Source: Iphione sp. A-MEVVRFRX5
Lineage: Eukaryota
NCBI GenBank assembly: GCA_976226885.1
Contig: OZ320321.1
Location: forward strand, 4,154,001-4,218,000
Direction of reading: 5' to 3'
DNA length: 64,000 nt
This document shows, one piece after another, positions 30,732-53,600 of the stretch; within the stretch, counting starts at the first letter, position 1; each line of letters starts with the position of its first letter. The position numbers and the translations under genes are program-made. Below the pieces are notes generated by a model that saw only the letters and a list, made by a program, of their open reading frames with translations, was not told the origin of the DNA and ran no database searches.

Positions 30732-32440
30732 ATGGCATCGAAGTATGAGGCATGCCTCTGCTGCCATTGTGGGTGCGCCTCCGACAATGAGTACAACTTC
30801 AAGCGCCATGTGAAAAAGCATTCGTGACAGGGCTTCATGAGGTGTGTCCTATACCCCGCCTCAAGGGGGCACAGTTCAGCCATCTGGACAATGTCCGGCG
30901 GAACCTCGAGAAACAACACACCAAGGAGGCGGACTGGTCGTTGGAGTTGGGGCAGTCCGTCGACGTGGTACACATGGACCTTGCCTCAGGGGAGATCATC
31001 CCCATTCCCCCTGACCTGGAAACGGAGTACGAGTGACAGAAACAAGTTGAGGCCTACGACAAGCAGAAGGAGATGGCCATGAGCCAGAGGGAAGCCCTGC
31101 TCCCCCGGCCCAAGTTGGGCTGACGTCCCCCTGTGGGTTGAGGGGCCTCTGCTGCTTCCGGCTGGCCCCTGGCTGGAGAGTCCGATGAGAAGGAAGAAGA
31201 GGAAGGGGAGGAGGTTACTGAAACACGCCAGCTCCAGCCCAGACTGGGGAGAGGGGCCCAGGTCTCCTCAACAGTGTCTACGCCAGGGACCTCTAAGGCA
31301 CCAGCCACCCCAGCCTCTACAGTGTCCATAGAGGCTCAACTCTTTGGGCTGGACACGTCACCAGAAGTCCAGCCCCAGAAGATATTTCAGCGGGCACCTT
31401 CCACCTCTCAGGGCCCAGCAGCAGCAGCTCCCCTGTCCACAGCTGGAGCCGCTCAGGTCCAAGAGATGCCCCCGAGTCAGGCAAGAGGAGTGGCACCACC
31501 AGCAGAGGAAGACCCGATTACCCCCAGCCATGGTTGGGACTTGGCTGCCATAGGGAGGAAGCCCAGGAGAAGTGGAAATACCAGTCCCAGACCAGCCCCA
31601 TCACACTGGCCATCACGACCATGTCCCCTCTTCACTGCACCTTGGTCTCAGCCAGGATCAAGGGGTAGGGGCACATTCCCCAGTCCACCCCAGGCTCTGT
31701 CGGGTCCTCCTCATACAGCACGGCAGTCCGGGTGTTGGACGAGCACCTGGGGGGGGCTGGGAAAACGTGGAGCATTCTGAGCAGCCGAGAAATGTGGTCG
31801 TGAAAGGCTCATAGCCAGAGTCGGAGGATGAAGGTGCTGGCCCCAAGACGTGACAGTGCCTTCCAGTACTCTGGCTAAGCAGGGTGCTAGCCCTGGAGGG
31901 ACCTGTGGCAGGGTCCGCTATGCCTGTCTGGAACTGGCGGGGGGCATTCCTGGTGTAGCTCAAGAATCTGAGGAGGGCTTAGCAATTGAAGAAGAGGCCG
32001 CCGCCACCCTGGCGGAGCTCAGCGGTAGCTATCCCTCTGCTCTCACGATGGAGTCGGAGCAGCAGCCGGGCCCCAGTGACCTCCAGCTGGAGGAAGAAGT
32101 CGAGCGGGAACCAGATGTCCCCCCGGCACTCCTGGGATGGCAAGAGGAGGGGAGGCAGTCAACTAACTCCCCTCCAGCTGACCAGGAGGTCTTCTCCCCG
32201 GCACTCCCGGGACAGTGGGAGGAGGGAGCCAGTTACCAGTCTCCCCTCCCGCGAACCAGGAGGTTCTACCCCGGCACCCCCGGGATGGCAACATGATGGG
32301 GAGGCTTCAGCCCTGGAGCCTCCCAAGGACCAGGAGGTCCTCACACCGGCACTCCCAGGATGTTGACCCGATGGGGAGGCCCCGACCCAGGCGCCTCCCC
32401 TGGACCTGGAGGTCCTCCCCCCGGCACCCCCCGGGACATC
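30732..32440 (+). pseudogene. Gypsy A 3' accessory ORF: two C2H2 fingers + long Pro/Glu/Ser-rich repetitive tail
   Basis: MASKYEACLCCHC-x12-HVKKH, then after a 1-nt shift CPIP..KGAQFSHLDNVRR.LEKQH. ORFs 30824, 31274 and 31850 share a frame separated by TGA stops. The end is approximate. Confidence 0.6.
32105..32440 (+). repeat. Degenerate coding tandem repeat, about 5 units (gaccaggaggt...ccggcactcccggga; DQEV.xPALPG)
   Basis: Core motif at ~32109, 32179, 32254, 32328 and 32402. Confidence 0.75.
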
Positions 32441-33037: not shown

Positions 33038-34500
33038 TGTGACGTTCTACACTCCCCTTTTGGAGGAGTTTTTAGATTTTTTTTTTTTTGGGAGGATGTC
33101 ACTTTCCTGAGGGATCGATAGGGTGGGTATTGTGGAGCAAAGCACCTCCTACCTTGGGGTTTTCTTCTCGAATCCTGGATTCCTTTCTTCTTCTGTGGTC
33201 CAGGGCGGCCTCCAGTCCTGGATCTTTTAGTCTTGAATCTGATGTTTTCTTTTTCCAGCAGGAATTAATAAAGTTTTGTGTTCATACACCTGACCTGTGT
33301 TGGTTGATTTTGGTTTTGAAGAGGCTTAAGATTATCACCCTCACAGAGTAATGTAGAAGATGAAATAGAGGAACGAGGACCCTGAGTGTAGGGTTTCGAG
33401 GGCTTTATTCCGAGTACATCAGTTGGATGATATGCTTTTCCCCTCTGACAGTAGAGCTAAGCTGGCAGACGTGTGGCAGGATGAACTTACATTTGGTGTC
33501 AGGTTCGGGACTTACGAGGCAGACCAGAGCCTGTGGATTCAAGTCCTGGGCAGGAGGGTTGGAGTCCTTCTTAGTCGGGAGTCCTCCCGACTGGGCAGCT
33601 GCCAGTAAAAGACCGGAGGATAGGTGGTTCCTCCAGCAGGGCTCTGGCCTGGTCTCGGCCACTCAAAAATGCTGGGTACTGAATCTCTTATTTCGCAACC
33701 CTAACTGATTTTAAAACTCTCTCTCCTCTGGGGAAGATGTGCAGCCTCTTTATATACGTCCCTGGTCCCAGGCTCTCCCTTCGCATTGGCTGAAAAGGGG
33801 CTATTCTGATTGGACGGTTGGGGGAGAGAACTGCTCTGATTGGCTCACATAAGTAAGCACCCCACGTTGAGGCCCAAGAGATCAAAGGGATTCCAGGTAA
33901 AGACAGATGGGGGCCCTAGAAATTGCACAATCCGTTGGTGAAGACTAATGAGGGCCATAAACGTCAGTTTAAGCTAAAAGTGTACCAGAATTCTCATAAA
34001 GTTTGTACTCAGGGCCATAACGCCTGTCAGTGGCTAGGAAAGATAATTGGATGGGTGATGAGGCAGGAGTCCAGATCCTTTGGAAAGGCAGACATCCGGG
34101 TCTAGCTCATTCAAGGGAGGAACTCGGACCGGAGTCACAAAGACAGGAATTTGTTGAGTATGCTGGACACCCAGAAGTAAGGAGAAAATATTCTTCACCT
34201 GTCAGATTCCTATCAAGTTGAGTTATTAGGAGATAGGAATCTCTTTTGATCTGGTGACTACCCTTCAGATGAGTTGCGAAAGAGAGGGATTACTCACACC
34301 TGCTTAGATTCCTTTGAGTTGCATCATAAAATGTTGGGAATCTGCTGACTGTCTTTTTTGAAGGGAACATTGGTGTCCCTTGAGTGGGAAAGGGTGGGAC
34401 GGGTATATAGTAAATGCTGAGTCGGCACAGAAGGCTCAGATGAGGTTGAATTTGCCTTCCCACAATGGAGTCGATGTTTAAGGGAGTTGTTGATCTAACA
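33038..34500 (-). repeat. 3' LTR of element B (~1.46 kb)
   Basis: Colinear with 57493-58961. On the minus strand: three CCAAT boxes (~33785-33843), TATAAA (~33750-33757), AATAAA (~33404-33409). Confidence 0.95.
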
Positions 34501-34519: not shown

Positions 34520-35703
34520 AGCCGTGTTGCCATTACACGGGAAGATATGTCTGAATTGACTACTGTCAGAGAGGAGAGTCATCCAAGACACAGTCACATC
34601 AAGTTTAAAAAAGGGTACAAGTTACATTAAACAATCCGGTAAACAATTTACACACAGATTGATTGCTACAATCTCTGAGATAAAAAAAATCATCATTCAA
34701 TCACTGCCAAGGATAAGCACACAAGCTTCGGTCACCGGTGGTTGTTTATTGTTGCCCAAGATTTTTACCTTCTTGCGCCGGTCGACCTCCACCTGGGTGG
34801 ATCTTGGGGAGTGTCCAGAAACTACACAGCAAACCTAGGTAAGTAACCATTTTCTATGCAATGTGTACTCTGCAGGAAAGACCTCATTAATAAAATAAGA
34901 ACACTCAAGTAGAAACAAATAACTGAACATTTATGGTACTCATCGTGATAGTAAATTACAACATAACCCTAGAAGTGAACTTAGATCAATCCGGTATCAA
35001 GAAGATATTTCCCGTGCGCCGTGTAAGTGATTGTTGACCTTTTACTCATACAGAGGTGTATAATTTCAGGGCTCAGTTTCAATGTTGAAGACCCTTGCGG
35101 TCTTTTTACACATAGTCGTTGGAGGCCAGACTCTCAGTGGAGCTGGCATACGGGAAATGGAACAGCTTGACAATAGGATTCGGTTTTGGAGGCGGGGAGG
35201 TAGCATCTGCGGATGCCGCCTCTTCAACAACATCACTCATGTCCAATCTCGCCAGCAGCTCATGGTAAGTTGGTGGGGAGGAGGCGACAGATTCCGCTTG
35301 GGGAGGAGCATTATTAGGTTTAGGATTTTTCGATTCGATTGGGGGAGAAGAGGGGGTTAGGGGTAGTTTAGGATAAGGTCCATTTTGAAGGAGGTAAGCC
35401 TGTCCCTGCTGTCCAAGGATAAGGGCCTGGGATGGGAGGTCCTGGATGGTGAGCACAAGGGGCTGGATATGCCTACCCTTCCAAAGAGGGACACAGACCG
35501 CCCTTGGGAGAATAACCTTACGAGTAGAGATGGAGTCTGATTGGTACAGGGGGTTGGAATACGTAAGCCGAACCAGATAAGTAAAACATTGTCGCTCAAC
35601 CTGAATGGTGAGAACCTTGGGGACCAGAAAAGTAATAGTAGGGAGGGCATTCGTCCGAAACTCATGGAGGAGAAGGGTAGCATGATCTTTTGGGGACCCA
35701 ATT

Positions 35704-37752
35704 TTAAGCAGGATCTGGAATCCCGAGGGAGAAGGTACAGGGCCCGTTTCTGTAGATTTCGCTTTGCAGTATCTTTTGGATGGCGTCTACATGATCAAGG
35801 AGCTCATTGTCCTTGGGAGGCAAGGTGGGCCCAGGTCTATGTGTCGCTCCCAGCAGGACCGGTGTTGCCCTTGCTGCCGGTGCTAGGGCAAGGGACAAGG
35901 TAAGGGTGTTTATCTTTTGAAAGAGGTGGATAAGGCCAAAGAGAAGGAGGAGGGTCACTGCAGAGTGAATAGAGTTCCATGCCCACATAATGGGGGTAGC
36001 CACAGTTCGGGCTTGACTGGAAGTCCAGTTTGGCCAGTATGCCATTTCCTTCTCCTGTCTTATCCTGATCTGTCGAGATTGTTCTATTTTGCGGGCTATT
36101 TTGTCAAGGTCTACGCCTGTGTGATCGGGGAGGGACTGCGACAAGTTAAATAAGGAAGAGGAATTAGATGTGAATATCAAACAGGAAGAAGTCCTTGAAA
36201 GTAGCAGAGGCAGTGAAATTTGGTAGGGAGAGATTGAAGGCTGTGGCAGCTGCTAAATTGATGCCGTTGACTGGCATGATTGCTCGTTCTTTGGTACAGA
36301 ACGCTGATGGAGGCATGTTGTAGGGTCCCACAGTGAGTGAGCAGTTGCACGGGGGTTTATATGTACAGAGAGGACAGTGAACATTAGTGGTTTTTCCTAT
36401 CAGAGTGTCTTCACCGGGTGTGGACCCGCTGATATATTTACTGTATCGTTTAGCCTTTTAAGGTAGGGTGGCATAGTGTCATTGGGGTGAACTGTAAACT
36501 GGCACCGGTGTCTTACAAGATCATGTCTATCATAGAAGAGGCCAAAGAGCAAGTCTGGGTTGCTTAGACATTAATAGGGGGTAGGGTTGTACAGGTGAGG
36601 ACATCATGTCCTTCACAGAAGGATAAGTCATATGGTTCGAGCTCTATAAAGGCAGACTGAAGAGGGCAGACTGCCATGTAGGCTGGCATGCATTGGATCT
36701 TAGTATATCCATGTGTTGTGGTAGTGGGGAGGGGTGTGTTAAAAGTATGAACATGATAAAGGTCAAACTGATCGCCGGGAGTACCTATTGGTACTGAAAC
36801 ATGAAGGAATACGTAATGATTGGAGTACATGAACTTGGTAAGCACGTGTTAGTAAAAAAAACCTCGGTCTGAAATCATTATATTTTCGCAGCCTTTTAGC
36901 TTAATGTTAATTTTTGCTAATCCCCTAGTGAGTTGTGCTGGAGAAATTAGACTGCCAGGAAGTCGCCCTATGCATAAGTCGTTAATCGCCAAGCAGTAAT
37001 GCAAGTACTGCTGTTTTGCTTGATGGAGAGTGTTGATTTTTAGTAGGAGAGTGGAGAAATAGTGAGTTGCCTCTGTTACTGCGTCTATAAGGCTTGATTG
37101 ATTTTGGAGAAGGTGTTCAGTTTGCTTTGCTATCTGGTCAGCCTGGTGAATTATGTTGGTTATGGCCTGATCATGGCGGTGTGTCTGTTGGAGAATTGCT
37201 TGGACGGTAGTGGCGGTACTGTTGGATAGTTGTGCCAGTTGGTCCTGCAGCTCTCCAAAGCGAATTTGGCTGTTTACAGCATCTAGGGTGTCAATTCATT
37301 TAGCCAGAGCATGAATATCATCCATGGTTGCCGTTCCAAATATGTACTTGGATAGAGTTCCCATGAAGCCAAATGGTGCTCTTGGCTGTTTTCGCGTATC
37401 GTATGTAGTTGGAGCAACCAAAAGGTTCTGGAACTGCTGGTTTTCATCCACCGTTTCCGCGAAAACAGACATATATTTTATGAGTCCTGCATATGAAAAC
37501 TTCCAATCTGGAACATGCCGCGTGCCATGAGCAAGGTAAAGGTTTGATGGGAGGCTTGATGAGCTTATGGTGCGGAAAGGGGGCTGGTCTTGGTATGACA
37601 AAAAGGAGATCCACGCTTCTCGTGTTGACGAGGATTGGAGTTGACATCTTTTCGTAGAGGACGCCAAAGTTTTGTCTTAATATATATTTAGATCATGCTG
37701 CTGGTGTTAAGACAGCGACGAGTAGAAAAATGACTTGCGTCACGATAGTAAC
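35704..37752 (-). pseudogene. env: env-like class I fusion glycoprotein (errantivirus env / baculovirus F-like)
   Basis: Signal-like VIFLLVAVLTPAA; RQNFGVLYEK; basic cleavage site RKQPR followed by APFGFMGTLSKYIFGTATMDD; heptad region; Cys-rich ectodomain; TM-like AVTLLLLFGLIHLF; stops/frameshifts. Confidence 0.82.
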
Positions 37753-40700
37753 CTGGAAAGAAATATTTCATTGTCTCTATGCCTTCAGATTGTTTTTTTT
37801 TTTTGTATCCGTCTTAAATGACTGCGGTGGTTCCTTGAGGTGTTATTATGCCTTGAAGTGGTGTTGTCCTAAGTGACTAATGTAGTGCCACCCAAGCACT
37901 GAAAATTCAAGTTCTACCACTGAGCTTTGAGGAGAAATAAACTCTAACGCTTTGTGAGTATATTTTCGGAGAGTGCTTCATTTGACTGAAGGCAAGAAAG
38001 GGTGCAGGGGGGGGGGTGTGTAGGTGAAATTGAGTTTTGGGGCAGTAATGGGGTTCTTATAGATCTTCTTCAAGATTAAAGAGAGTTTGTGCTGCCACTT
38101 CTTCAAGGGCTTGCTGGGCTGCTCTATAGTTCTTGAAAGGGCCATGATGGCCTGTTTGTGCACGTAGTGCCAAACAACAAAGATAGTCCCAATAGGGGAT
38201 GTCATTCGGAGCGTAGTTTGGAGCACGTTCAGTGTCCAGATATCGGACGAGGTCTTCACGAGTGCGTGCTGCAATGTTTGGTTTAAAGACATCTAAAGTC
38301 AGGGTGTCCGTCAAGTTGAGGGCTCGGCCCGTTAAGGCATCCCTGTAGAGGGTGGAATTACGGCTTTTACGACGGAGGAGATTTCTGTGATGAGTGTCAG
38401 TAGTGTAGTCTCGCTGGATGGTAGGCCAGGAGATAGGGGGGGTAATATCAGGCGGGCATTCGTCAGTGAAGAAGTGGATGCCTTCACATGCAGATTCCTC
38501 TACGGCTCATTTCTCATGCCACATGAGCCCGATATGCGGCTTGAGCTTCTTCCTGGAGAAATGGTCTGTCCAGAAATTCGGTAGAGAAGACTCTTTTCAC
38601 TTTGGCGTGGGGAAGTGTTGGATGAGGGGGAGGGAAATAATTTGTGAAATGGTAGCCTGGGCGGTATGATAGGGGAATAACATAGGTAGGTTCAGGTGGG
38701 GTGGGAGAGGTTGCGCTAGAGGATGGGGGTGTGGGGGATGCAGTGGGAGAAGGCGAAGTACTAGTATCATGTGAGGCATCCGTGCCATTGGAAGGGGTTG
38801 GTCAGAAAGGTTCCGAGGCTGAACGAGGTGGGTAAGAGTGATTTTCAGAAGGGGGCCAGGTAGATTCAAGGGAGTGCGACTGAAAGGTAGGTCCTGGCAT
38901 TGGGTCTGGAGAGGGGGAGGCGGGGGTTGAGGGGAGGCTTGGGTTGTATGACGTAGATATGGGTGCCGAATTGAGGGATGAAAGAGGGGTAGAATGATTG
39001 GAGAGCGAAGAAGTGGGAGCGGGGATTGAAAGGTGGAGGGTGCCGTTCAAAACAGAGGAAGACGGGTAGATTGGGAGGGAGAATGAGGAAGTCTGCATGG
39101 ATGCTGGCTAAGGGAGGGCAAATCGTGGCAGGGGAAGGTCCAGAGGGCTAGAATGGGGGTGGGGTAAATGGGGATGGAGAGGGGGAACTATAGCAAGGTT
39201 ACGGGGAGGGCGAGGGTCTGGGAGAGTGGTTTCAAGGTGGGCCTGCTCGTGTGAAAGGGGGAGAACGGGTGTATGAGAGGGTCGAGTGACTGAGCGGGGG
39301 GATAGCATTAGTCGTGTTCTTCCCCCATGAGGGTGTCTAGTCGCCAGATATCGGTTAAATTCGTTGAAGAAAACGTTGAGCAAATCGTCAGATGGTTGAA
39401 AGTCCCTAAAAACAGAGAGGATATGTGGTAGTTCCGGTCTGAATCATTTAGTTGTAGATTCAAGATCAGGAAATATGTTTTTGGGTGGGTGATGGGAGTG
39501 TATGGGGGCAGGACAGTCTCTTAGGGAAATCGGAGAGGTCTTACATTGAGTTGGGGGCGTTGACTGGTGAGGGGATGGGTGCCTTTGGGGGGGGAGGGTA
39601 ACTGTAAGGAAAAAGGAAGGGGGGGTCAGGCAAGGTGGATCGGGGACTGATAGAGGTAGGTTCCAGGTGGTATCCACAAAAGAGTAAGGCCTACCTCAAA
39701 GCCATGATGGTTGTTGGTGATTGAGGTGTTTGTTGATTTGATGGAGATTTAGCCTGGGTTGATACGTGAAGAATGTGTTCCGTAATTCCTGGTTTTAAAG
39801 TGAGCATGAAGGGTGACTCGAGGAGGAGGGCGTTGGTTGACGCAATTGATATAGAGCGCTAAGGCCGAGAATATGGATTGAGAAATCCAAAATTCTGAGT
39901 TCCAAAAAGGCTGGATGCAAAGGTTTGAGTGGTGTCGGGCAGTTTTCACGACAAAGCTTATATACTTATCGCTAGGGGATAGTCCAGGATAGGGGAAGGA
40001 GTGTCCATTGTAACAGGGGTGAGAGGTGCACTTGGTACTAGCGAGAGTGAAGATGTTTTATGGTAATGAGCATGAGATAAAAAGACGATTAAAAGGGAGT
40101 GATATAGTATACCTAAGTCAGTGAAAAAGGTGGGGGAACCATAGATCTGTGGTCGCGAGTCGCCAAGGAACACGGCGGTAGGGGGAGGTTGTCATAACAG
40201 GTGGTAACGTGTTGTGAGAGGGGGAGATAGCAGATAATGAGCAGGAGGACTGTGTTGGTCGGGCAGTAAAAAGGCAAGGGGAGGGAGAAAAATAGTCTTG
40301 AAAGAAGTATAGTTTGTTCTCGACCCGGGATAAAGGAACCTACAACGATCATATGGATGGACGAGAGAAGGGAACAGGTGAGTGTCGAACAGGTGTAAAG
40401 CCGGGATGAGAATGGGAAACAATTATGCTGTACCCATGACAGTAGGTAAGGGGCTAAGTATTCTCTTGGGGTGGGTGAGAGACGGGGGTATCGGGGGAGG
40501 GGGCATAGTAAACGGGACAGATTGACCTGATTGGGATGGGAGTGAGGCTACATTTGTACATTGGATCGTTGGAGCTGTGAAGGAGTAGCTCACGGGTCAA
40601 GAGAACGCATAATGGACACGCTAAGAAATGCTCTGCGACAGGTGTGGGTGTTTGCCCGGAGCGTTGGGGTGCTCCTGGGTCTAGTCGGAGAGGGGGGCTT

Positions 40701-41930
40701 AGCGCCCCCAACTGCACTGAAAGGTGAGTGGTAATTTCTTATTTGAGGCAGGAAAGGGTTGGAGTTGGTTACATGGGGGGAGGAGGGAGGAAGGGAAGGG
40801 GCTGGGGCTACTTATCGGTACACAAGTTTTTGTGGTTGAAAAAAAAGGGGGGGGGGGAAACGGTTTCGAGAGGGAGTCTATGAGTTTCTTAATTTTATGT
40901 ATATGCTTAAAGTGTGGAAGAAATAACTCTTTGTTTGGGTAATGACCTAAGTGGATAGGAAACTGAGATTAATCGCTAATCAGGGGGGTTCAAGGATGGT
41001 TTTTCTGATGCTGACGGAGGATCGCTGTGAACTATGAGGGCAGGTCGCAAGGTCAGCATTATCAGGATGCCTCACAAACTGAGCTAATCTTGGGGCGAAA
41101 TCCCTGCAGCGGGAAACACATCATTTGGCCTTTAGGACCGTCTGATTCCTAGGATGGTAAATCAGAGCCATTTGGGAGTTTAACGTGTTCACAGACGATC
41201 GTGTTGCAAGACTTTAGTTTGTTTTTGTTTATAGGATTCCTTGGTGTCAAGTATGCATGATAGGGAGAGGAGGGGGTTCGTCGCAGCTTGATAGTTAAAA
41301 GGCAAGCAAAGAGAATTAAGGGGTCACAGGAAACCTCAAGAGATCATGGCGACAAAAGTGGAATTGAACTGTCGGCATACTAATATATCAGAAGGGTGGG
41401 GGAGGGTTTGGAGGTTGTAGCCGGGAAGACCACGGTTTTAATGGTGAATGCAAGTAAATCAAGTGAAATGGTTGTAAGGAAGGGTCCTGCAATTGGGAGT
41501 TCTGATCGCTGATATCACGACTCGGACTTATTGCCATTTCCAGTAAGTAGAGACAAGATTCAACAGGGGAACAGGCTGGGAGTGCGGGTGAGTGATGACA
41601 ATTCAAAAGGGCGGTTCTTGTGGTTGAAGTCTATAAAATTTTATACCGAAAACGAAAGAAGTGGGGGAAAGGAAATAATGCCGTGGGGTTGGGAAATAAT
41701 TGCAGTATGGTTTACTACAATTCCGTCCGTAAGGAAGGGTTGTGTGCCATAAGTAAAGTAGAGGGAAGGAAAAGAAGGAGTATAGGGGTGTCATTATTGC
41801 CCTTGTAATAGGTTTTCCGGCCTTTCGTGAAGAAAATTATCTGGTTTCAAGGCAATTAATTGTATTGGAGATGGGAATACTCCGATGTGTACGCCTGCAG
41901 TGCAATTTGTTTAAAAGATAAGAAAGTGGC

Positions 41931-42285
41931 AAAAGCCGTTCTCCGTAGTGCGCGACAGGTACTTCCTCCTTTTGGGGAGGACTGCCTCTTTTTCAAAGGA
42001 GGCTTCAGGCATGGGGGTATGGCACTTGCTGCTTGCCCTATGGAGGGGGCCAGCGGGAGAGAGACTTGAGCGACCGTGTCGAAGCCTGGCTGAAGGTTCT
42101 ACTGGGTAAACCTTGTCAGCATGTCCCGAGAGGTATGGCACTCGTTCATCGAACGAGGCAGACAATTATTTCCTTGGTTTAACTCTCCCGTTCTGCACCA
42201 GCTGGTCTGGGTTTCGAACCCTCTCGCCCCTGGCATTCATACGCGGGGAGGAAACGTCCTAACCGCTACACCACGGAGATCGGCT
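41931..42285 (-). ncRNA. Pol III-type RNA unit 1 (~355 nt, VA/EBER-like architecture)
   Basis: A box TGGTGTAGCGG, B box GGTTCGAAACC; 17-bp terminal stem AGCCGATCTCCGTGGTG / CACTACGGAGAACGGCT running into TTTT. Confidence 0.72.
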
Positions 42286-42794
42286 GACAGGTGTAGTGTA
42301 AAACTTAGAGCCAATTGTGCATCTAGGACGTAAATAAATCATGAGATGGCACATCAGTGGCGCGCGCGTGGTGACGTCACGATTCGGACCCGGTTACAGG
42401 GCGATTTTAACTGGGTCAAGTATGGTTCACCGCTAAGTCTGAGGAGGGCGCCGCAATGTAGGCCCAGTATCCACGTAGGGGAACACATGTAACTGTAGAT
42501 ATGATGAGGGCGAATGTATGTTTTGAAGGTTACCTATAGCTAATTCAATAATGAAATGGTATAATAGTGGCGTGGAGTCAGATGTTTTGCAAGTTGTAGA
42601 GAGTAAAAGAGTAAGTATTTTCAGGCCTTGGTTATGTGGAAAGGAGGAGGGGAAGGGTGACGGGAGTGCTTTGCCGACCTGTGTTGTAAACTGTTGTGTG
42701 TGTGTATGGAGGGTGATAACGGCGGTAACGTGGCAGATCAGAGCCCAGTGGAGGGTTGGTGATTCGACATTATTTTTTGGTGGTAGGAGAAGAC

Positions 42795-43225
42795 AAAAAT
42801 GCCTTTGGTCCCCATGACAGACACCTGTCTTGGGTAAGTCTTTCAGTGCTTCTCTTCTTTCCTTGGGGAGGATCTGGTGGGTGTACACGCGCATACATGG
42901 CCACTTGGAAGGAGGCAACTCCCTCTCTCAACGAAATCTGTGAGTGCTCTGGACTTACAGCACTGGAGCTGACGCAGGCCTGCAGCTGAAGCTTCTACCA
43001 GCAGTAGTGATGAGGAGGTGGTGTGGAGTACACCTGGGTGGGTCTTTTCTGACTGTCATCTGCTACTAGACCCACTTCTTTATCCATGCCCATCGTGGCT
43101 GTGTCGCTGTTCGACGGAGGAGAGGCAGTCCTTGGGAGAGGCCGGCCGTGGGACTCGAACCCACATCTGGCTATGCTGCACGCATCAGGTGGAGTGCCCT
43201 GCGTTCTGAACCATGGGGACCGGCT
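42795..43225 (-). ncRNA. Pol III-type RNA unit 2 (~430 nt, tRNA-like head, terminal stem, T5 terminator)
   Basis: 5' AGCC-GGTCCCCATG pairs with 3' CATGGGGACC-AAA-GGCA followed by TTTTT; T-arm GTGGG TTCGAGT CCCAC. Confidence 0.65.
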
Positions 43226-44479
43226 GAGGTAGGAATGCCACATGCTTAGGGTGAATACGTGCGGGGGGGTAGTTCTCTTTCGAGCTGCTGGGAGGCAGCA
43301 CTGAAAGGCAATGAGGCCAGGTCAGTTGGTCGGTCCATTTTTAAGGAGGTCAGCAGCAGTTTCGCGGCCCAGGGTAGGCAAAAATGGTTGGAAAAGAGTA
43401 ATTTTTATGGCCTACAGAGGATAAAAACTCAGCCGAATCCGTAGGAACTCGTGCCGGCCTGAACTGGGGGGTTGCATGGTGAAGACACCTTTCGCAAGGG
43501 CTTGAGAGATGAGTATGGACAAGACAATGGGGGTGAATCTCCAACTCGAAGTGCCATATGGCCAGCTGAGTATGTTTGAATAGGGTGCAGTTAAAGGCCC
43601 CCGAGAGAATCCGAAACCTGGTTGACGGTTCTCTTGGGTAAGTCTTTTCCGTTGTCACCATAGACCCCCTTTGTGGTCCCCATTGCAAATCAAAGAAAAT
43701 TTCCCGCTCTTCCGTCATCCTTTACCCGTTCAAGATGGGTTAGTTCCTTTCCACAGTCCACGCTCTAGGCAGTGGTAAGGTGCGTCCAGTCGGCGGCCAG
43801 TTAGCGGCCAGTTATAGCAGTGCAGGGGTCTACCCTATTCCTAGGTGTCATAAATCTGTCATAATCCTGGAGGGTACAAGGGAGATAGTGCACTGAGAGG
43901 TTGGCTTAGTGCAGGTAGACGGCATATAGGGAGATGGAATGTCTTTCCACCTGAAATGCTAAGTGGCCAGTAGGAGAGTATATAGTCCGGGTGCAAGAGA
44001 GTAACAGTAGTACAGGAGAAGGAGCTGAGGCCACTTGAGAGGGAATGAGGTGAGTGTTAAGCGTGAAGGTAGGTTCTACAAGAAGGGGTATGAGGATAGT
44101 AGATGTAGAATGTAAGTCAGAGGCAGGTAGCCAGAGAGATTCAATAGAAGCCGTGCGTAGAGAGAGGGGTGTGTCACGGTGACGCCGGAACGTGCGGGCA
44201 AATATATTCAGGCTGATTGGTAGCTGAGCCTAGTCAATGTTGAGAGATGCGGGGTCTGGCTTGGGTCGGAATTGCGCCATTCGGTTCTAAGTTAAAGTAA
44301 ATATTTCGAGCGTGCGAGGTTTTATCTTATGCTTAATCTTAACCTCAGATATGGCGTAAAGAGGGGTTTTTGTAATTTTTTGCTTTTATTTATTTTTTTG
44401 GCGGGGACTTCTCAGAAGCCACAGTCCTTTTTGTTTTCTTTTTTGTTTAGGAACGAGGGGAGGGGGTGTCATTAGTGTT

Positions 44480-45772
44480 CATTTTTTTGTTGTTGAGACA
44501 ATAGAGAAAGGCGGGTCGGGGGGCAGTATACAAATGTCGATTTCCTTATTGGGCGGGATCCTCTTCCTCCAGGTCGCGGAGGTCCTCCATGCTGAGGGGA
44601 CGGTTGACTGTCGTGGACACCGCCCGGAATTGCTGCCTGGGGAGTACCCGCATGTCGTTAAGCAGCCTGTGTCGCCAGGTCAAGAAGAACATCCAACTCC
44701 TGCTGGTCAAGGGTGCGGCGGCGAGCTTGGTGCCGGAGGGTTTCTATGTGGAGGATGGTGGTGTTGTGTGCGGAGAGCTCGTCCTCCTCGCGCAGGTTCC
44801 AGTCAGCGGGGGTTCCTGGGCGTTGGGCCCCCGACAAGAGAAAGTAAGGCCTATCCCTAAGGGGCCCTAAAGTGTCTGCGGTTATCGTCTGCCCAGTAGA
44901 TATGGCCTCAACGGTCGCCAGGCTGAGGGAGGCGATGTTTCTCTGCTGCTGGGACCAGGCTCGCCAGTCTGGGGTAATGTTGATACGTACGGGTCGAGTA
45001 GGCGGGTATCGTGCCAGACCAACATAAGGGCGCACAGTCCCTTCAGCAATGGCCTGAAGCCACTGGTCAAACAGGGTGACAGGGTGGTTGGCATCCTGGG
45101 GTGGTGGGACAGGTCCTTCGGCAGGCTGATCCCTCCGAGTCATCGTCAGAATCTAACCGTCATCGTTGTCGGGGAGGGGAGCCCGGGGGTGGCGCAGCTT
45201 GAGCTCTAGACGGTCCAGGTTGTGGTTCTTCATCACTCCTCCTCCTCCTGCCTCTGCTGACGCCCTCTGCGTCTCCTGGTGTTTCTCTGTCGCAGAGGAA
45301 CAGGGTCTCCCTCTCGACCCCACCAGGCGTTCATGAGGTTGCGAACCTCCATGCGTGCAGCCTTGGGTGCCCTTTGGGCCGGCAACCTCCACCCCGCTGA
45401 GTCCAGCCCAAAAAGATGGTGAAGGTTGGGCACACACAAGTGTGCCGCTGACACATGAAAGCTGTGGACATGGCTCTCCCAAGCCGTGTAGTCCCTCAAA
45501 TAAGCTTTGCCCTCGCACCACAGGCATGCCATATATTGCCACATTCTGGTTCCTCATACAGGCAAATGGTGCACCCTTCGGAGATGACGGTTGAGGTTTG
45601 ACTGGGTGTTAAATAGTTTGTGCTGGCAATGAGTGCAGCGGAGTCCTTTCGCCATTACAGATGAAGAGACGCTGTTAAGTGGGTTTACGTTCCAGTTCAA
45701 GGGTTGCTGGGAGTGAGATAAGTTTGTGTGACGTGGGAAATTCAAACTCGAGACGTACGTGGTTCGAGACAT
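44480..45772 (-). pseudogene. Element B accessory ORF: two C2H2 fingers followed by an unknown domain
   Basis: CTHC-x13-HLRRVH, an in-frame TGA, then CLWC-x13-HVHSFH. A frameshift leads to NLDRLELKLRHP, which is in frame (one stop) with ORF 44658..45143. Confidence 0.6.
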
Positions 45773-45967
45773 ATGTGGAGACTTTCGGTCTCGTGACGGT
45801 TGTCATTTGATTGTGTTTTGTTTTGGAAGGGAAGTTCGTTGTGGACTCCACAGGGGTTCCATAGTCGTGCGTGAGCTCCCCTAAGAGGTGATGTGCTATG
45901 TTCTGTGTCATATCCTGGGCGAACTCGCTGGGGTGTTGGTGAACCTCATTTCTTTGGCGGTGTCTTT

Positions 45968-46063
45968 GAGACCGACGGGGAGACTCGATCCATTACAGGA
46001 TGAAGATCTACGTCTATAGCATAATGCTCTTACCACTGGGCCACTGGGCCGCTGGGGCCGGCT
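45968..46063 (-). ncRNA. tRNA-like Pol III-type unit 3
   Basis: Starts AGCCG; A box TGGCCCAGTGG; B box GATCGAGTC; GTTTTAC 12 nt upstream as in unit 1. Confidence 0.5.
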
Positions 46064-46691
46064 GGCGAAGGGAGGGTAAAACTCAGAGTGGCTTTAGAGG
46101 CCAAGTATGGTAGGTCATGGAAAGTAGGGCAGTTGTTACGTCAGAGCGGTGTCGGTGGGTGTACGAGTATAGGGACAGAGTCAGAGAGGCATTAAAGGGG
46201 GCGCCAGAGGCAGTAAATACCGTGGTCACAGTTCAAATGTTATGGGCCTGGCCTGAGATGCGTTAGCGAGGTAAAGTATTATGCTGATGGGGAAAGTGGC
46301 CTGAAATGAGGTAATCTTCTTAAAGGAGGGGGGGGGGACGAAGTCAGGAGAAGGTGACTGGGGGGTGGTGAGGTAAACACCATTTCTATGTGTGAATCCG
46401 TAGATTAAGTACCAGTTATGGTATCTCAATTAAATATTTTAATCCTGACCACAGGTTATGCGTGGTCGGGTGTATATAAATAGAGTGCACCTGAAGGGCG
46501 GTGGTATGGCCAAAGCTTAATCACTAGACTTCCTGGGAGAACTCTCTTGAGTGCCAGTCGGCCCTCATCGGGGTCACATATGAATATTCAAACTCTGGGT
46601 CTTGCTTCCTAATTGTAGTTGCAAGACAGCACATATAGTCTTTTGATTTTAGGGCATAAGGGGAAGTTCGCGTAGACGGCGACGTTGTTGT

Positions 46692-47042
46692 TTATTGTAG
46701 ATTGTATTCACGGCCTTCATGCAAATACTCTATAAGGAGGGCTACTAAGCATATTTGTAATAGTGGAGATTCCAAGTTAAAGAATAATCCCGCTGGATGA
46801 TAGTCGTAAAGTCTCCAATGAGATATGTAATCAGAGAGCCTGAGAATCATCCTATACCGCATATAGGTTGTAATGTCAGGGTGTCGCAGGCCTGTTCCTA
46901 CCTTGTAAAAATGTCGGAGGAGAGCCAATACACAGTCTGATAGGACAGGGGCTCCTCCATACTGAAGGTGTTGTTTCCTCTGCATATATTGCCTAAGGTT
47001 AAGAGATCTGAAGAGGACCGGATATCTCATCTGAGGCCACAT
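46692..47042 (-). CDS. Accessory ORF P3 (116 aa from MWPQMR, unknown family, shorter)
   Basis: APVLSDC...GLRHP...FFNLESPLLQ; splice acceptor 2 nt before ATG at 47042. Confidence 0.66.
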   Translation of the reverse strand: MWPQMRYPVLFRSLNLRQYMQRKQHLQYGGAPVLSDCVLALLRHFYKVGTGLRHPDITTYMRYRMILRLSDYISHWRLYDYHPAGLFFNLESPLLQICLVALLIEYLHEGREYNLQ

Positions 47043-48527
47043 ACCTAAAAAGGGAGGGATCGGGGGATATGCACAGTGATCCGTGTTGATAGTGTACATG
47101 AGTGAAAGAGTCGTGTATCCTTTCAGGGGCTGGGGTCGGCAGAGAGGAAAAAGGAGGGGGGGGGGGAAACAGATGATGAAAACCGGGCTGGTGGTTGGTT
47201 TTCATTAGGGTATTACTTGTCATAGAATTTGTATATGTTGCTTTTAAATGCTTGTCGGTCTTACGCCCGATTGTTTGATGTCATTCCCTTTTTTTTTTTT
47301 TCTCTGAGGTCGTAATCGGGGCTGCCTGGAGCCCTGATGAGGCAGGGGCCACTTGGCCTGAGGCAGAGGAGGGGCGCTTAACAGGTAAGTAAGAAAGGTT
47401 ACATGACTGTGGTAGCTTTAACGTAATTATCCTCTTGGTCCATTATTCTGGAATGTCGTTTATGGTGAGGAAGGCAGAGGTCATATTATTAAAGGTGGGG
47501 GGGGGGGGCAAGGGTGATCCTTCATATTGGTGCTTTTTAATGTTCTGTCTTTCACCCTTCTTCTAGAAGTCATGGTGGAGGAGGCACTACCATCTCCCGG
47601 AGAGAGCCTCCCTGAGATGGAAGGGGTGGGGCTCCCCAGACAAGAAGTGGGGGCCCTGCGGCTGGCGTGGGTTCTCCACAGCGGTGAGTGGACAGTTTCT
47701 TGTTTTTGGTTGTTTGCCGATTCCATTTCCTTTTCGCATAGGTTGGGTTCACAAAAAGGAAAGGGGAGCCAATTTTGGAAGGAGCGGGGGGGGGGGGTGG
47801 GGGGAAGGAGAAGTAGGGGGGGATGTTATCCCACCAAAAGGGAAGGGGTAGCCTCCGTTGTTTTGTTTTGGGTAGAGTAACGTTATGCTACAAAAAGGGG
47901 GGGGGCATAGGATATCATGTGTGATCCTGGTGCTAATATTTTTATTTCTGTATGTCTTTTACAGGAGTCACAGTCATGCGGGAACACCCAGAGGAGGGAG
48001 AGCGGGGGCTATGTCAGCGGCGACGCCCGGCAAGAGAAGAGCTCCCCTGCTAAAAGATTCATCATTTTGCTTGAAGTAGATGGGAGTAGGTTTTAGTAGG
48101 GGGAAAGGGGGGGAATATTCATTTTAGTTCAAGGGGTATTTTCATAATCATCCTTGTAGTGCATTGTCAGATCCTTTATATTTATTTTTGTACTTTTTTC
48201 CTACATATATATTTTTATCATTAAACCTTCCTTATTGTTCTTAATCCTGCTTGCGTTTTTGTGTGATGCCTCCTGACTGACGTCCCTCTCCATTCATCTG
48301 ATGTGAGTTTGCAGTGGAGCCTTCATGTTTTTAGGATAGTTTTATAAAACTCGAACTGCAGTAAAGGAGGTTGCATTTTTTTTTATAGTATACGGGTGTT
48401 AGTTCCTTGAGATGTCCATGACTATTAGGAAGTACCCTCGGCATGTTTTCTATATCTCCCCTTTATTACGTACTCCTTTATCAATAATGTGCAATATAAG
48501 CATGCCTCAGAATCATTCCCTAGGACT

Positions 48528-49079
48528 TTACGGCATGGTAGAGAATGTTAGCATATGGGGGGGGGGGCATGGTGAGGAGAACAGAGTACCAACAAGAAAG
48601 CGGGGTTGTGTGGGGTAAGTGGAGAACCTATTCCTATAGATGAGCACCACTCGTACAGCTGCTTCGCGGATGGGGTTGTTGGATTTTATATAACAGAACG
48701 CCGAAAATTGTTTGTGAAGTGCAAGCATAATCAGGGTATCCCACGAAGGCAGAAAGTGTCGCGGGAGCCGAGGCTTGTTATAAGTACGGAGATAGTGTTC
48801 TATGAGAGTAGACAAGGGGATCTGAACCAGAGTAAGGTCCAGGTTGAAGAAGGAAGATCGCCAAGAGGTCAGTTGGTCAGAGACCGATGCAAAATTGTCA
48901 CACGCAAGGTGTTCCAGCAGAAGATGACGGCCCATAGAAGAGAGTGAGGGGTGTCGCAGGCCCGTATGAGTTTGAAACAAAGCCCTGACAAGTTCATAGA
49001 TGCAATCTCTCAACGCAGGTTGTTTCCCTTTGCATAGCTGATCTGCCCTATGTTGCAGGCGCCCTCGACATCTGGACAT
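48528..49079 (-). CDS. Accessory ORF P2 (183 aa, unknown family)
   Basis: Intact; QPALRDC...GLRHP...FFNLDLTLVQ...PSWDTLIMLAL; splice acceptor 2 nt before ATG. Confidence 0.72.
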   Translation of the reverse strand: MSRCRGRLQHRADQLCKGKQPALRDCIYELVRALFQTHTGLRHPSLSSMGRHLLLEHLACDNFASVSDQLTSWRSSFFNLDLTLVQIPLSTLIEHYLRTYNKPRLPRHFLPSWDTLIMLALHKQFSAFCYIKSNNPIREAAVRVVLIYRNRFSTYPTQPRFLVGTLFSSPCPPPHMLTFSTMP

Positions 49080-49206
49080 ATCTAAAAAGAGGAGAACCCG
49101 ATTGTTGGCTCTATAAAATAGTGTAATGGGGGTTAGGTGGAGTCATTCTTTTGTCCTTTTTCCTAAGGGAAATTCATCTTTATGTAACCTAAGTCAATGA
49201 CTAACC

Positions 49207-49758
49207 CTAACTTTCTGTTCTTACTACTTTGCAGGAGGGCCAGGCAAGGGTTTCCCATTCATCCGCGGAGACAGGGTTTCGCCTAAACAAGCCTGCAGTG
49301 CAGGATTTCGGGGTTGGAGATCCTGTTCCCTTAAGATAGGTCTCAATTGCCTTGATAGCAGCTTGGTTCCTCCAGGAAGGGCCATAGGGAACCTGACATC
49401 GTTCTTCACAAAGAGCCAACATGATGAGAGTGTCCCATGTCGGAAAGAATATTGGGGGTAAGTGCGGTTCTATTCCATGTTCCAGGTATGTTTGTATATT
49501 CCGCCTTAAAGCCAGCTGTACAAGAGGTAGCTCAAGCTTGAAAAAGTGGGAGTTTCGGTCAATACCGGCCATGTCTGGTTTGTTAACACACAAAGTGAGT
49601 CTGCATAGGAAGTCCCTTCTTTCTACAGAGGAGATGCAGGGGTGTCGCAACCCCTGGGTTGGTCTGAATAGAAGAAAAGAGAGGTGTGGAATGCAGTCTT
49701 TCAGTGTAGGAAGTCTACCATTTCTTAGGACGCGCTCTCGACTGTAGATGGAGGCCAT
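49207..49758 (-). CDS. Accessory ORF P1 (183 aa, unknown family, paralog of P2/P3)
   Basis: Intact; motif LP.L.DC...GLRHP...FF.LEL.LVQ..L...PTWDTLIMLAL; splice acceptor 3 nt before ATG. Confidence 0.72.
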   Translation of the reverse strand: MASIYSRERVLRNGRLPTLKDCIPHLSFLLFRPTQGLRHPCISSVERRDFLCRLTLCVNKPDMAGIDRNSHFFKLELPLVQLALRRNIQTYLEHGIEPHLPPIFFPTWDTLIMLALCEERCQVPYGPSWRNQAAIKAIETYLKGTGSPTPKSCTAGLFRRNPVSADEWETLAWPSCKVVRTES

Positions 49759-50658
49759 AGCCTACAGATTAAATCAAATCAAAACAGAACTCATAAGGAG
49801 AATACACGAAGGCATGGTAAGGGGGTATATGGCTAGAGGGACCTAGTCTGGGGGCGTAAATTAGTAATGTATACTTGGCTTGGACTCGAGCTCCTTGGCT
49901 GAGTTCGCAGCGTGTGGGCTCTACTTGGCTCCAGCCTTCGTATATGGCAGTAGGGCGATGGGGAAATGCGCTGGAGGGAGGCGAGGAGGTAGCTAAGCTC
50001 CAAGTCTCCCCCGGTGGTGGTCGGTGCCCTTCTGCATGTGAATGGCTTATGACCGCTGTGTTACGCACTCAGGTAGGAGGCATGGCAAAGAGAGAGAGCA
50101 CACGAGTAAGACAGAGCGAGGCAAGGAGACGAAGTAGCGAGAGATCCACCCGGATCTCTGCCAATTAACCTTTTCCTTTCTAATGACTTGTTGATTTGTG
50201 TGCACTGTTCTAATGACCTGTCTTCTCCCTACTTTCTTGTTGCATCATGGTAGCATGGTTACAACTTCTCAGCATTGTTCATGGTGTTACTTAACTAGAG
50301 TTTTCCTGGTCTTCCCTGACGTAGGAGGCGAGGATTTCCCTCTTAGGGGGCGTGACCCCTTCCCTATATCCTGGGGTGCTCACCCGGTAAGGGGGCACTC
50401 CTTTTCCTTCTTTTCCTTGGATGCGTAGAATGTTCGGCTGATCTACGAGGGGATAATCTTTTATCTCCTGTGCAGTGTCTTTGCGACGCTCCTATAAGTA
50501 GTCTACATGTACTCCTCCTTCCACCACATCTCCAAAGAGAGTGGATTTACGATAAAGTGGGGTGAACTTATAAAGACTGACAAATATTAAAAAAGAACTG
50601 TGACAGTAATAAAGGGAGTCCGCTTCTAGGAAAAAAAGGGGGTATAAGAACCTCTTCA

Positions 50659-53600
50659 TCAGTGTCCCTTTTTAACGAATAATTTCCGAGCAAGAGACTT
50701 CCATCGAGATGTAACCAACTGAGCAGGGGGAGAGGCTTGAGGAGTTGATTTTGTGGCCAGAGTATGGACAGAGGACCAAAGGCGACGACTGCATCTTAGA
50801 TTCAATGCAGGGGGCGGGCTCAGAGGTGTTCCAGAGGAGGGTGACTCAACCTTGGAGGTCTGGGGGCCTGGGGGTCCAGGATAAATAAAGGGGTCATTCC
50901 CCTCAGGATCCTCTTTGGGGTTCTTCCAAACAATTATCTTCTTTGTTCCCGGAGGAATGGTGAATTTCTCAAGTTTGACTACAGGATTCATGTCGTGCAG
51001 TTGATTGGCCTCACTAGGGGAGGGCGATTTACGAGTTCGTTCCATAAAGCGAATCACACCCTCATCTTTTTCTGTATCGGAATCCTGAGTGTCAGGGGAA
51101 GAAGAATCAGAGGAAGTCTGTTCCTCTACCTGTGTATTTGAGGGAGACTCCTCCTCTTCCTGTTCCAACCCGGGCAAGCCAAATCCGACATCAAAGTCCT
51201 CAGGATCAAGTGGTTTATCCTCCGTCACAAATTTGTCAGGGACAGCCACTTTAGTGGATTCGGGGGAGGCTGGCAGATCCTCTTCTCCCAGGGAAATTAG
51301 AATTGCCAGAGAAGGGTCTTCTTCTGGGCTGGTGCGCATAGGAGTTTTCAAGGGGGGTAATAACTGCGTCCTCCTGGGAGGAAATAGGGCTGACTGAGCC
51401 ACATAGTCCCGTGGATTGGGGACTGTCCGGGGGTAGGTCTTCGTGGGAAAGATTCTCATTATGTATTTCTTTGTTAATCATAGGCCCCACAGTCCTGTTC
51501 ATTTCAGGCGGCTGGTGGTGACTGGTCGAGAGAGATGACGGTTTGTCTGGAGACATTTCAGATAAACCGTAGAGGGGGTGTGGAATTCTGTAATGGCATA
51601 GGGCCCATGATAGACTCGGGCCAGCTTCAGCTTGAGGAAAGGATCCCTAAGCTGTGGCATGTAAAGCCAAACCATGTCTCCCTTCTTTAGTTCAGGGCTA
51701 TAGGCCCTGTCATCAAATTGGTCCTTCATGACGACAGAGTATTTCTCTGCAGTCTCCTCAGCAGCCAAATTAGCCTGATGTTGGGTATGGAGATGCTCCC
51801 CCAACCTTTCCTGGACCGACATTGGTTCATCCTCAGGAAGAGGAACTGAATCCATTTCTGGACGGCACGGCTCATAGCCATTCAGAAGAAGGTAGGGGCT
51901 CTGACCGGTTCTAGGGGCCTTAGTGGTGTTTAATGCAAAGCAGATAGATGGAAGACAAACGTCCCAATTGTTCTGATTTTTACTTACGTAATTTCGAAGG
52001 ACTGTCAGAAAGGAGCGGTTAGCCCTTTCCACTAACCCTGAGGTTTTGGGGTGACCTGCTGTAGTGAACTTTTGTTTCATTCCATTTTGTCGGCAGTAGT
52101 TCATAAAGCGGTCCGATATGAAAGCTGAGCCGTTGTCCGATACTATAGTGTTGACGGTGCCAAAACAGTAGACAACATGTTCTTTAAATTTGGAAATGAG
52201 AGTGTCTGCCCGTAAGTCCGGTTGGGCCTTTTCCTGTTGATGGCAATCCCTCAATGGCATCCATACTTATGGTGTTCCAAGGAGTGGGAGCGGGGTCTTG
52301 GAGAGTGAGGGGGGGCCTAATCGGCCTGGTCATTCGTGTTGTTTGACAACACCTCACGCAGGTGGCATAGTAGTCATGTACATCCTCACTCATTCCTGTC
52401 CAAAACAAGGTCTCCCTCATTTTAGATAGCATTTTCACCAGACCTAGGTGGCCTGCATGGGGGGTGTCATGGTTTTGCTGAAGAAACTTTTCTCTAAGAA
52501 GACATTTTGAACAGAACACTTTGATAGAGGAAGAAATCTTCCTCTCTGAGAAGCACCCAAGCACCGTTTTGTCATCAAGAGGCTACCATACTTGATGAAT
52601 GAAACGGTTTGTTTACAAAAGGCATCGTTCCTTTGGGCTTCCAGAATCTCTGATAAAGGGATATGGGAAGATTTGAGAAGCCTTTCTGCTCCCGATTGAA
52701 GGACAAACTGTCTCTCTCTCCTCTTTCGATTGTTAGGCCCCTTCTTGGCAAGGAGGGGGTCCGTAGGTTTATCTTCAGAGGTGCCGGGATCCGGCATCAC
52801 TTCCACTGCTCCAGTGGGAAGAGGGGAGGGGGAGGATTTGGAGGCTTCCAGGGATATTTGTGACATGGGGGTGCGGTCTTTCTTGATGGGAACATTGAGC
52901 CTGGACAATGCATCAGGTACTGCATTGGAGGCACCTGGGACATTGGACTGTATAATTGAAGGGCTGAAGGAATTCCATCCAGCGAATCACCCTTGTGTCC
53001 TTGTGCTCCAAGGACTTGGTTACAAGAATGTGAACTAAGGGGTTGTGGTCCGTTTGTATACAGAACTTTGCGCCCTCGAGATAGACCTTCCAGTGCTTTA
53101 CGGCATAGAAAACAGCAGCCATCTCCTTGTCTGTGGTCGAGTAATTGAGCTGCACTCCCTGAAATGCTTTTGCCCGAAAGGCAACAGGTTGGATATTCCC
53201 TGAGTTGTCTCTCTGGGACAGGCTGGCGCCCATGCCGTAGTTACTGGCGTCCATGGCGAGAAAGAATTCTCGACCAAAATCAGGGTAGACGAGGAGTTGG
53301 TCGTCCATACATGCTTGCTTGAGTGTTTGAAATGCCTCCTCCTGGGTTGGGCCCCAGAGAAATGGAACATGTTTTCTAGTTAGGTCGTAAAGGGGCTTAG
53401 CCTTCAGGCCGTATTTTGGGATAAACTTTCGGTAGTACCCTGTCATTCTCAAGAATCGTCGCACCTGTCAGACAGTTACTGGCATCTTCATGTCCTGTAT
53501 TTTGGCAATGTTGTCGGGTGCTGGTCTGATTCCATCAGTCATGATAATGTGACCTAAAAATTTGACTTCTGCACGACTGATTTCACATTTAGAAGGTTTT

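Follow-up and report, generated by a model that had tools for sequence, protein, structure and literature searches.

The window, by which we mean the whole 64,000-nt stretch of DNA analysed, contains a decayed Ty3/gypsy LTR element of 25.9 kb that carries, between pol and env, two tandem genes (unit 1 and unit 2), each with a Pol III-type promoter, a terminal stem and a T-run (Table 1). Judged from the sequence of one genome, these two Pol III-type RNA genes of a giant, env-carrying retrotransposon are genuine and under selection, and it is highly probable that they are transcribed as Pol III genes. In addition, both units carry a short segment that matches, and changes together with, a site at the end of an antisense coding exon upstream of unit 2. 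We tentatively interpret the Pol III RNAs as trans guides acting on the element's own antisense transcript, an interpretation that we credit nearly as much as we doubt.

Table 1. Positions in the window of the two RNA genes, the antisense exon and the landmarks of the host element
Feature	Position	Strand	Remarks
5′ LTR	57493-58961	minus	TG...CA; 4-bp target duplication CTCG; 94% identical to 3′ LTR
Primer-binding site	57476-57491	minus	16 nt complementary to host tRNA-Ala(AGC) 3′ end plus CCA, compared by eye
Broken pol pieces	51499-54766	minus	Ty3/gypsy order RT-RNase H-integrase
Second small conserved hairpin, beyond target	43663-43678	not assigned	
Conserved co-varying hairpin, putative target	43593-43647	plus	3′ arm with donor-like junction TTGG/GTAAGT, GT at 43638-43639
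Antisense first coding exon	43558-43637	plus	Family peptide starts MAKRV..NR.RL; stop at codon 4 in window copy
Conserved box about 75 nt before antisense ATG	43481-43492	plus	TATAAAA in clade S; degenerate in window
Unit 2, putative Pol III RNA gene	43225-42795	minus	431 nt, AGCCG start to first T-run
Terminal stem of unit 2, 5′ strand	43224-43212	minus	GCC plus GGTCCCCATG, the latter at 43221-43212
A box	43213-43203	minus	1 mismatch to TRGYNNARNNG, the consensus quoted in PMC6315926
ATGC/GCAT hairpin	43185-43173	minus	Present in window copy
T-arm hairpin GTGGG/TTCGAGT/CCCAC	43164-43148	minus	B box inside at 43162-43151; tRNA-Leu-like in related clades
Guide-like segment of unit 2	42843-42828	minus	16 nt, same as upstream site 43647-43632; complementary to plus strand 43632-43647
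Terminal stem of unit 2, 3′ strand	42816-42801	minus	CATGGGGACC at 42816-42807; invariant AAA bulge at 42806-42804
T5 run, putative Pol III terminator	42799-42795	minus	First T-run; conservation at shuffled level beyond
Unit 1, paralogous Pol III-type gene	42285-41931	minus	355 nt; own terminal stem and T4
Longer guide-like segment in unit 1	42114-42085	minus	About 30-35 nt
Broken env-like region	35106-38000	minus	Related copies match Baculo_F
3′ LTR	33038-34500	minus	94% identical to 5′ LTR

A preliminary description of unit 2 had named an AGCCG start, a T-arm and a T5 run about 430 nt from the head, giving no strand. All three are found on the minus strand at that distance, and the T-arm is preserved in the family through wobble changes. 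The 5′ end had been said to pair perfectly with the sequence immediately before the T5 run; the perfect 10-bp helix GGTCCCCATG/CATGGGGACC is indeed present, but seven nucleotides (AAAGGCA) separate it from the T-run, and their GGC adds three base pairs past the AAA bulge. In dinucleotide shuffles of unit 2, the first 20 nt find a Watson-Crick partner of at least 10 bp among the last 25 nt in only 2 of 10,000 cases, placing the complement next to the first T-run above chance, as had been proposed as a check; among 1,673 control starts of the element this happens once, that one probably being unit 2 itself. The fold of the whole unit is no more stable than that of shuffles (z −1.03). Rfam gave no match at gathering score in the 64-kb window, nor at E up to 5 in 41700-44000, and ARAGORN called no tRNA in the window. 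The variable-arm-like ATGC/GCAT hairpin of the same description exists in the window copy, but an exact ATGC/GCAT is present in just 1 of 117 distinct heads, which rules it out as a family feature.

The unit belongs to a large family in this genome, with 904 exact matches to 17-nt heads and 899 to 18-nt tails, against none for the reversed controls. Four clades were sampled in depth: window-like (units of about 415-640 nt), young (618-801 nt), the short clade (a 283-nt unit plus a 255-nt unit 1) and clade S (a single unit of 227-272 nt), giving an overall range of 227-801 nt. Among clades W, Y, T and L216, identity is 83% in the first 90 nt and 80% in the last 45 nt, as compared with 37% in the body and 53-55% in the flanks, where shuffled controls reach 35% and 51-52%, respectively. 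Like type 2 Pol III genes, the units have internal A and B boxes 30-60 nt apart and a first run of four or more T at the 3′ boundary of conservation. Specifically, among 117 distinct heads, pre-selected by head and loose B-box patterns, the A box has at most one mismatch in 109 and the B box in 105, with a spacing of 40-45 nt in 113 of 115. The end stem is paired in 890 of 910 cells over 70 distinct unit-2 copies selected by head and tail motifs; 12 of its pairs are nearly invariant and thus uninformative, while one varies in compensatory fashion (G-C 34, A-T 23, G-T 6, non-pairing 7). Of the 61 head/tail types, 49 form a better stem from the sense strand than from its complement. An internal T4 occurs in 4 of 88 unit copies and an A4 in 63, but this T4 avoidance is weak evidence, since low T content alone predicts the absence for each unit (P 0.46-0.84).

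The bodies, in contrast to the ends, cannot be aligned. Their best single 70-nt hairpins range from −13 to −27 kcal/mol, no conserved pre-miRNA hairpin was found in them, and most are long, with folds of ordinary stability (z +0.3 to −5.9 across units). A coding role of the body is ruled out by indels that are out of frame and by the lack of a conserved frame. An internally deleted, 240-nt unit that retains both ends was observed at three loci (L051/52/55).

The origin of the head in a tRNA is visible in part of the family: against 102 distinct host tRNAs, an incomplete set, heads of four loci (L062, L115, L119, L126) match tRNA-Leu above the shuffled maxima, while the window head does no better than shuffles (41.5 versus 40.0). 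ARAGORN recognises none of the 117 heads at default; at -ps90 it makes 26 calls, which are of mixed type. A GCCGG/CCGGC helix could form locally, but has a probability of 0.0 in the window copy. A tRNA-derived head and about 900 copies are also what an inserted tRNA-derived SINE, a neutral cargo, would display. However, all of the first 30 heads sampled are preceded by element-derived sequence, and the units are therefore not a free SINE; independent dispersed insertions were not seen, the alignments show no poly(A) tail or target duplication, and the body turns over faster than the ends, so that we consider a SINE origin largely refuted. Of 20 loci selected by RT, 6 yielded no unit within 8-kb stretches, and of 20 chosen by a diverged antisense ORF, 11 yielded none within 5.1-kb stretches; the cassette may thus be confined to part of the lineage. 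Copies of clades T and S are concentrated near host contig ends (C4, C7, C16, C23, C1) and on small contigs, which hints at a subtelomeric preference. Extra B-box-like motifs (GGTTCGA/TTCGAACCC), some on the opposite strand, lie near clade T and S units (L062:5500-6270, L063, L067, L218) and are possibly further tRNA relics. The host assembly itself has two quite different tRNA gene sets per amino acid (L140-L177), one of them dense on small contigs C27/C78/C83, as well as tRNA-like genes bearing inserts of 170-220 nt (L140-L177). The host is probably an invertebrate bilaterian, having mir-133 and a tRNA set unlike that of vertebrates; look-alikes from Mollusca and Annelida in a protein-cluster atlas point weakly in the same direction.

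Nucleotides 1-10 of the host miR-133 3′ arm find a complement in the tail GGGGACCAAA, raising the idea of a miR-133 sponge that would account for the invariant AAA bulge. Host mir-133 is detected over the cut-off, the 10-nt match is perfect, and GGACCAAA is present in 30 of 33 distinct tails; but 7 of the 10 bases are buried in the end stem, the second unit of L216 retains the bulge without the site, the site is missing from unit 1 and clade S, and the match was spotted post hoc. Such a sponge is, in our estimation, very improbable.

Unit 1 was said to differ in body while keeping the same design. The bodies do differ overall, but the two units have upstream sequence, head and 3′ motifs in common and, on this sequence evidence, are paralogs from an old tandem duplication. 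The fold of unit 1 exceeds that of shuffles in stability (z −3.58). The head-to-tail pairing is maintained between the paralogs as it is within unit 2: unit 1 types carry the compensatory pairs TCTCCGT/ACGGAGA and TCTCAGC/GCTGAGA, and L216 carries CTCC/GGAG, so that covariation across element copies adds to the one variable pair of the unit-2 stem. Because boxes, stem and T-run are conserved, bodies are unalignable and pairs change in compensatory fashion, we conclude that selection acts on the head-to-tail helix of tandem Pol III-type genes. The selection and the tandem arrangement that had been claimed for a VA-I/VA-II-like pair thus stand, but the likeness to VA is one of layout only. Just upstream of unit 1, at 42350-42400, a block of GTGACGTCA...GCGCGCG is kept between the window-like and young clades and resembles a CRE/ATF site. 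At one locus (L081), unit 2 is itself tandemly duplicated, 569 nt apart.

The host element combines the domain order of Ty3/gypsy pol with LTRs, a primer-binding site and, in related copies, an F-type env; a protease was found in a related copy. The window env is broken, but both of the two related env frames scanned match Baculo_F (E 1e-9 to 1e-11), and for this reason the element is, by its sequence, errantivirus-like in the sense of PMC13524379. The errantiviruses with F-type env in that study likewise have a Ty3/gypsy pol, but the survey left out LTR spacings above 14 kb, whereas the host element spans 26 kb. Between pol and the RNA genes, at 44658-49761 on the minus strand, lie three paralogous 'LRHP' accessory frames without a Pfam match, together with a frame for C2H2 zinc fingers that is 508 aa long in L070.

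Upstream of unit 2, a short coding exon is conserved on the opposite strand. Over 13 codons and 6 representatives, it has 68 synonymous versus 33 non-synonymous codon differences, the best of the six frames (next 43:56), which shows purifying selection at the sequence level. The distance from the antisense ATG to the unit start is 326-337 nt in four clades and 347 and 381 nt in two far clades, and is shorter in five deleted window-type copies; predicted beforehand for two further loci, it was 329 and 330 nt, correct at both. A constant spacing of this kind would also suit a reading in which no free RNA matters, the A and B boxes being TFIIIC sites (an insulator, or a promoter helper of the antisense gene) and the stems acting in cis in the genomic RNA. 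The failure of default ARAGORN to recognise a cloverleaf in any head and the weakness of T4 avoidance fit it as well. However, in units ranging from 227 to 801 nt, the two ends are brought together by the long-range stem precisely at the first T-run, and conservation ends there; a DNA element would require neither, and this reading appears quite improbable to us.

The exon junction is GT in 17, GC in 5 and AC in 6 of 28 copies (GT or GC in 22), and the AC copies rule out a universal U1 mimic or a universal splice donor. In clades T and S, an antisense SGNH/GDSL-like frame follows downstream of the exon (L062:2509-3219 in element orientation; L068), and all 12 copies listed have a phase-1 acceptor in front of it. 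The donor is in phase 1 in the young clade and clade S and in phase 2 in the window-like and T clades; the window copy and the young clade have no SGNH/GDSL-like exon. The frame occurs in at least 150 genomic copies of 51-100% identity, mostly open. It has no Pfam match, while in a protein-cluster atlas GDSL families are found on 21-30% of members in the clusters that resemble it. Relatives of the antisense ORF were found neither in viral contigs nor by word search of public proteins, and two weak partial matches appeared among representatives; a search for the 19-nt tail in metagenomes gave 9 matches, none with a head within 1 kb, and an integrase search for relatives elsewhere gave 1 match. 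With no head-bearing match and no close antisense-ORF relative from these searches, all the evidence comes from one genome. Extra ORFs that are antisense or GDSL-like are already known from LTR elements: Retand has antisense ORFs (PMC11963269) and rotifer LTR elements a GDSL ORF3 (PMC5408684), likewise in a long region from pol to the LTR. The Arg/Lys-rich peptide of the antisense exon stops after 21-48 codons, depending on the clade, and in clade S an ATG lies 3 nt beyond the stop and shortly ahead of the donor, an arrangement resembling a uORF.

In every clade, a segment of 13-35 nt within the units copies a site 414-421 nt upstream of unit 2. The segment is 16 nt long in unit 2 and about 35 nt in unit 1 and clade S, and the young clade carries three tandem copies of it. 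On the other strand, the site is the end of the conserved antisense exon, mostly at the GT/GC donor. In at least five lineages the segment has changed in step with the site, with matched variants CCCAAG in L001/L003, AGCTTACC in L021 and the young clade, TTGTCC in parts of clade S, GTT(T)GCCC in L216 and AATACCC in L208. The segment has sense sequence and is therefore complementary to the antisense transcript; no complement was found on the sense strand of the element. The segment may resemble miR-10 and the loop of a retroviral transport element, a likeness that carries no weight here.

Where segment and site differ in the core, the differences are mostly wobble-compatible with the antisense RNA (29:9, p 0.0008, from 55 of 58 rows, leaving out one mis-assigned upstream site and two internal look-alikes). 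Collapsed to four clades, the ratio is 21:9 (p 0.02), and in later-fetched clades it is 7:2 (p 0.09); distal columns are unbiased (27:23), and p rises to 0.14 when all columns are counted with clades collapsed. Wobble sites are predicted to be paired inside the unit in 21 of 27 cases, as compared with 161 of 291 identical sites, and in these models internal unit structure may explain part of the bias. The isolated duplex with the antisense site is predicted at −26.5 kcal/mol for unit 2 and −45.7 kcal/mol for unit 1, against −10.3 kcal/mol for host U1. At equilibrium, however, co-folding gains only −0.6 kcal/mol in the window copy and 0 to −14.7 kcal/mol in 12 other units, which does not exceed the gain of control segments; as the 3′ arm of a stable hairpin, the site leaves almost nothing to gain. 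The guide-like segment pairs best with the site of its own subfamily in 6 of 10 cases; clade S segments prefer their own subfamily in 0 of 6, yet all six prefer clade S sites. Better folding of the target hairpin on the antisense strand (15 of 15) was dropped as evidence, as 79% of 675 control windows do likewise.

The same data can be read with the segment acting in its sense orientation, as a protein-binding motif of a sense-RNA hairpin; the unit RNAs would then be decoys or scaffolds that titrate or deliver a protein acting in export, packaging or host restriction. Read in the sense direction, the segment has the same sequence as the 5′ arm of the co-varying hairpin, the three tandem copies of the segment in the young clade would suit such a role, antisense binding nets nothing at equilibrium, and a sense motif would serve equally at sites without a donor. 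However, the units do not contain the 3′ arm of the hairpin, so that its fold is not mimicked, the segment/site differences are skewed to wobble-compatible ones, and the coding signal of the upstream site lies on the antisense strand and not the sense strand. We regard this possibility, including the suggested roles of the bound protein, as unlikely.

A further reading is that only the end stem matters and that the units are generic, VA-like decoys of host RNA defence (Dicer, Exportin-5, dsRNA sensors), the shared segment being a relic of tandem duplication, homogenised by template switching during reverse transcription. VA RNAs act in this way (PMC4378190), the most conserved parts of the units are end stem, promoter and terminator, and tandem duplications and deletions of units do occur (L081, L051). 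Nevertheless, the segment outlives complete turnover of the body in every clade and tracks single-base changes of the site, conversion would yield neither a wobble bias nor three copies, and long bodies of ordinary stability are not what such decoys would call for. We hold this reading to be improbable.

We favour pairing in trans with the antisense RNA because the segment is complementary to it, the core differences show the wobble bias and the isolated duplex is strong. In the mechanism that we propose, unit 2 is an internal-promoter (A/B box) Pol III gene of an env-bearing Ty3/gypsy element, would derive from a tRNA head, probably Leu, and would have yielded unit 1 by duplication. Its RNA would be closed by a 13-bp end-to-end stem before the U tail, and any body of 227-801 nt would be tolerated. 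The sequence-specific part would be the 13-35 nt segment near the 3′ end, which would pair in trans with an antisense Pol II transcript predicted to start back-to-back with unit 2. Paired in this way, the segment would mask the end of the antisense first coding exon and the splice donor and would tune, most likely dampen, splicing or translation of the antisense gene. Since the site is locked in a stable hairpin and the co-folding gain is minimal, the hairpin would have to be opened, either by a helper or by a ribosome translating the short ORF. That minimal gain, the absence of bias in distal columns, the AC junctions at 6 of 28 sites and the lack of an SGNH exon in the window copy and the young clade all speak against a guide function. 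A more specific form, in which giant errantivirus-like elements encode trans-acting Pol III guides that out-compete U1 at the antisense exon junction, or refold it, and co-evolve with it, is possible but more doubted than believed by us. If true, it would be an RNA-only autoregulatory circuit operating over hundreds of copies; such circuits are known in herpesviruses and bacterial plasmids, but our literature searches found none for LTR retrotransposons.

Several viral RNAs offer points of comparison. Adenovirus VA RNAs close with an end-to-end stem before the oligo-U tail, as the units here do, and we know of no VA counterpart to a segment complementary to the element's own transcript. VA RNAI and RNAII are likewise tandem A/B-box Pol III genes, but about 160 nt long (PMC4378190), whereas the units here, of 227-801 nt, have no fixed size and no conserved central domain. 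With their length, their place in a retroelement and no Rfam match, the units are not adenovirus VA RNAs. EBER1 and EBER2 of EBV are also a tandem pair of diverged viral Pol III RNAs, and EBER2 recognises a nascent transcript of the same virus by base-pairing in trans (PMC4378190, PMC6315926). The EBERs, however, are about 180 nt and herpesviral, as opposed to units of 227-801 nt in a retrotransposon; the predicted partner here is an antisense exon/donor hairpin, and no PAX5-like factor is known here. Size, a non-herpesviral setting and the lack of an Rfam match place the units outside the EBER family. In BLV, sense-strand Pol III small-RNA genes of a retroviral genome likewise face the virus's own antisense transcripts (AS1/AS2), with the miRNAs acting on AS1-L (PMC4855707), as is predicted here; the BLV miRNAs overlap their target and come from pre-miRNA hairpins, whereas here the target lies 400-1,500 nt off and is matched by a duplicated segment. 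By analogy, the co-varying segment points more to an EBER2-like or BLV-like role than to a VA-like one.

In MHV-68 TMERs, too, a tRNA-like head serves as the Pol III promoter, with cargo and oligo-T behind it (PMC6315926, PMC4378190), but the units here have no intact cloverleaf at default ARAGORN and their 5′ strand pairs with the far 3′ end; nor do pre-miRNA hairpins follow the tRNA part, so the units are not TMERs. The TRIMp3 elements Cassandra, Helenus and Ajax are also LTR elements with Pol III promoters derived from small RNAs (PMC10886601). They are short and non-autonomous, with the promoter in the LTR making template RNA, in contrast to the internal, terminated genes of a 26-kb coding element seen here, and this position and element size exclude TRIMp3 membership. 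The available main text of PMC13524379 contains none of the terms 'polymerase iii', 'non-coding' and 'antisense', and no errantivirus with internal Pol III RNA genes turned up in our searches of openly accessible articles.

According to PMC4378190, viral Pol III RNAs are few; those described come from vertebrate viruses. VA/EBER-style genes here, under selection in many subfamilies of an invertebrate element, would bring a 'complex virus' trait to Ty3/gypsy elements and extend it to the 26-kb size class that was filtered out of the survey in PMC13524379. By analogy, the element may regulate itself by RNA as some herpesviruses do. Were the units to act as guides, the family would constitute a natural series of co-evolved RNA guide/target pairs, bearing on how retroelements control their own antisense transcription, a question open for HTLV/BLV and plant Retand.

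Elsewhere in the window, a separate element at 16237-22939 on the plus strand carries a 562-aa NADAR-domain frame, then one of 244 aa that shares 30% identity with the antisense SGNH-like protein, and then an endonuclease-RT (LINE-like) frame. An isolated tRNA-like A/B-box sequence at 9760-9860 on the minus strand is probably a SINE. The first 6,350 nt (1-6350) comprise an AT-rich 3.3-kb tandem duplication with nested repeats, and a 27-28-nt tandem array and a 75-nt GC-rich array lie at 3104-3342 and 32105-32434, in that order.
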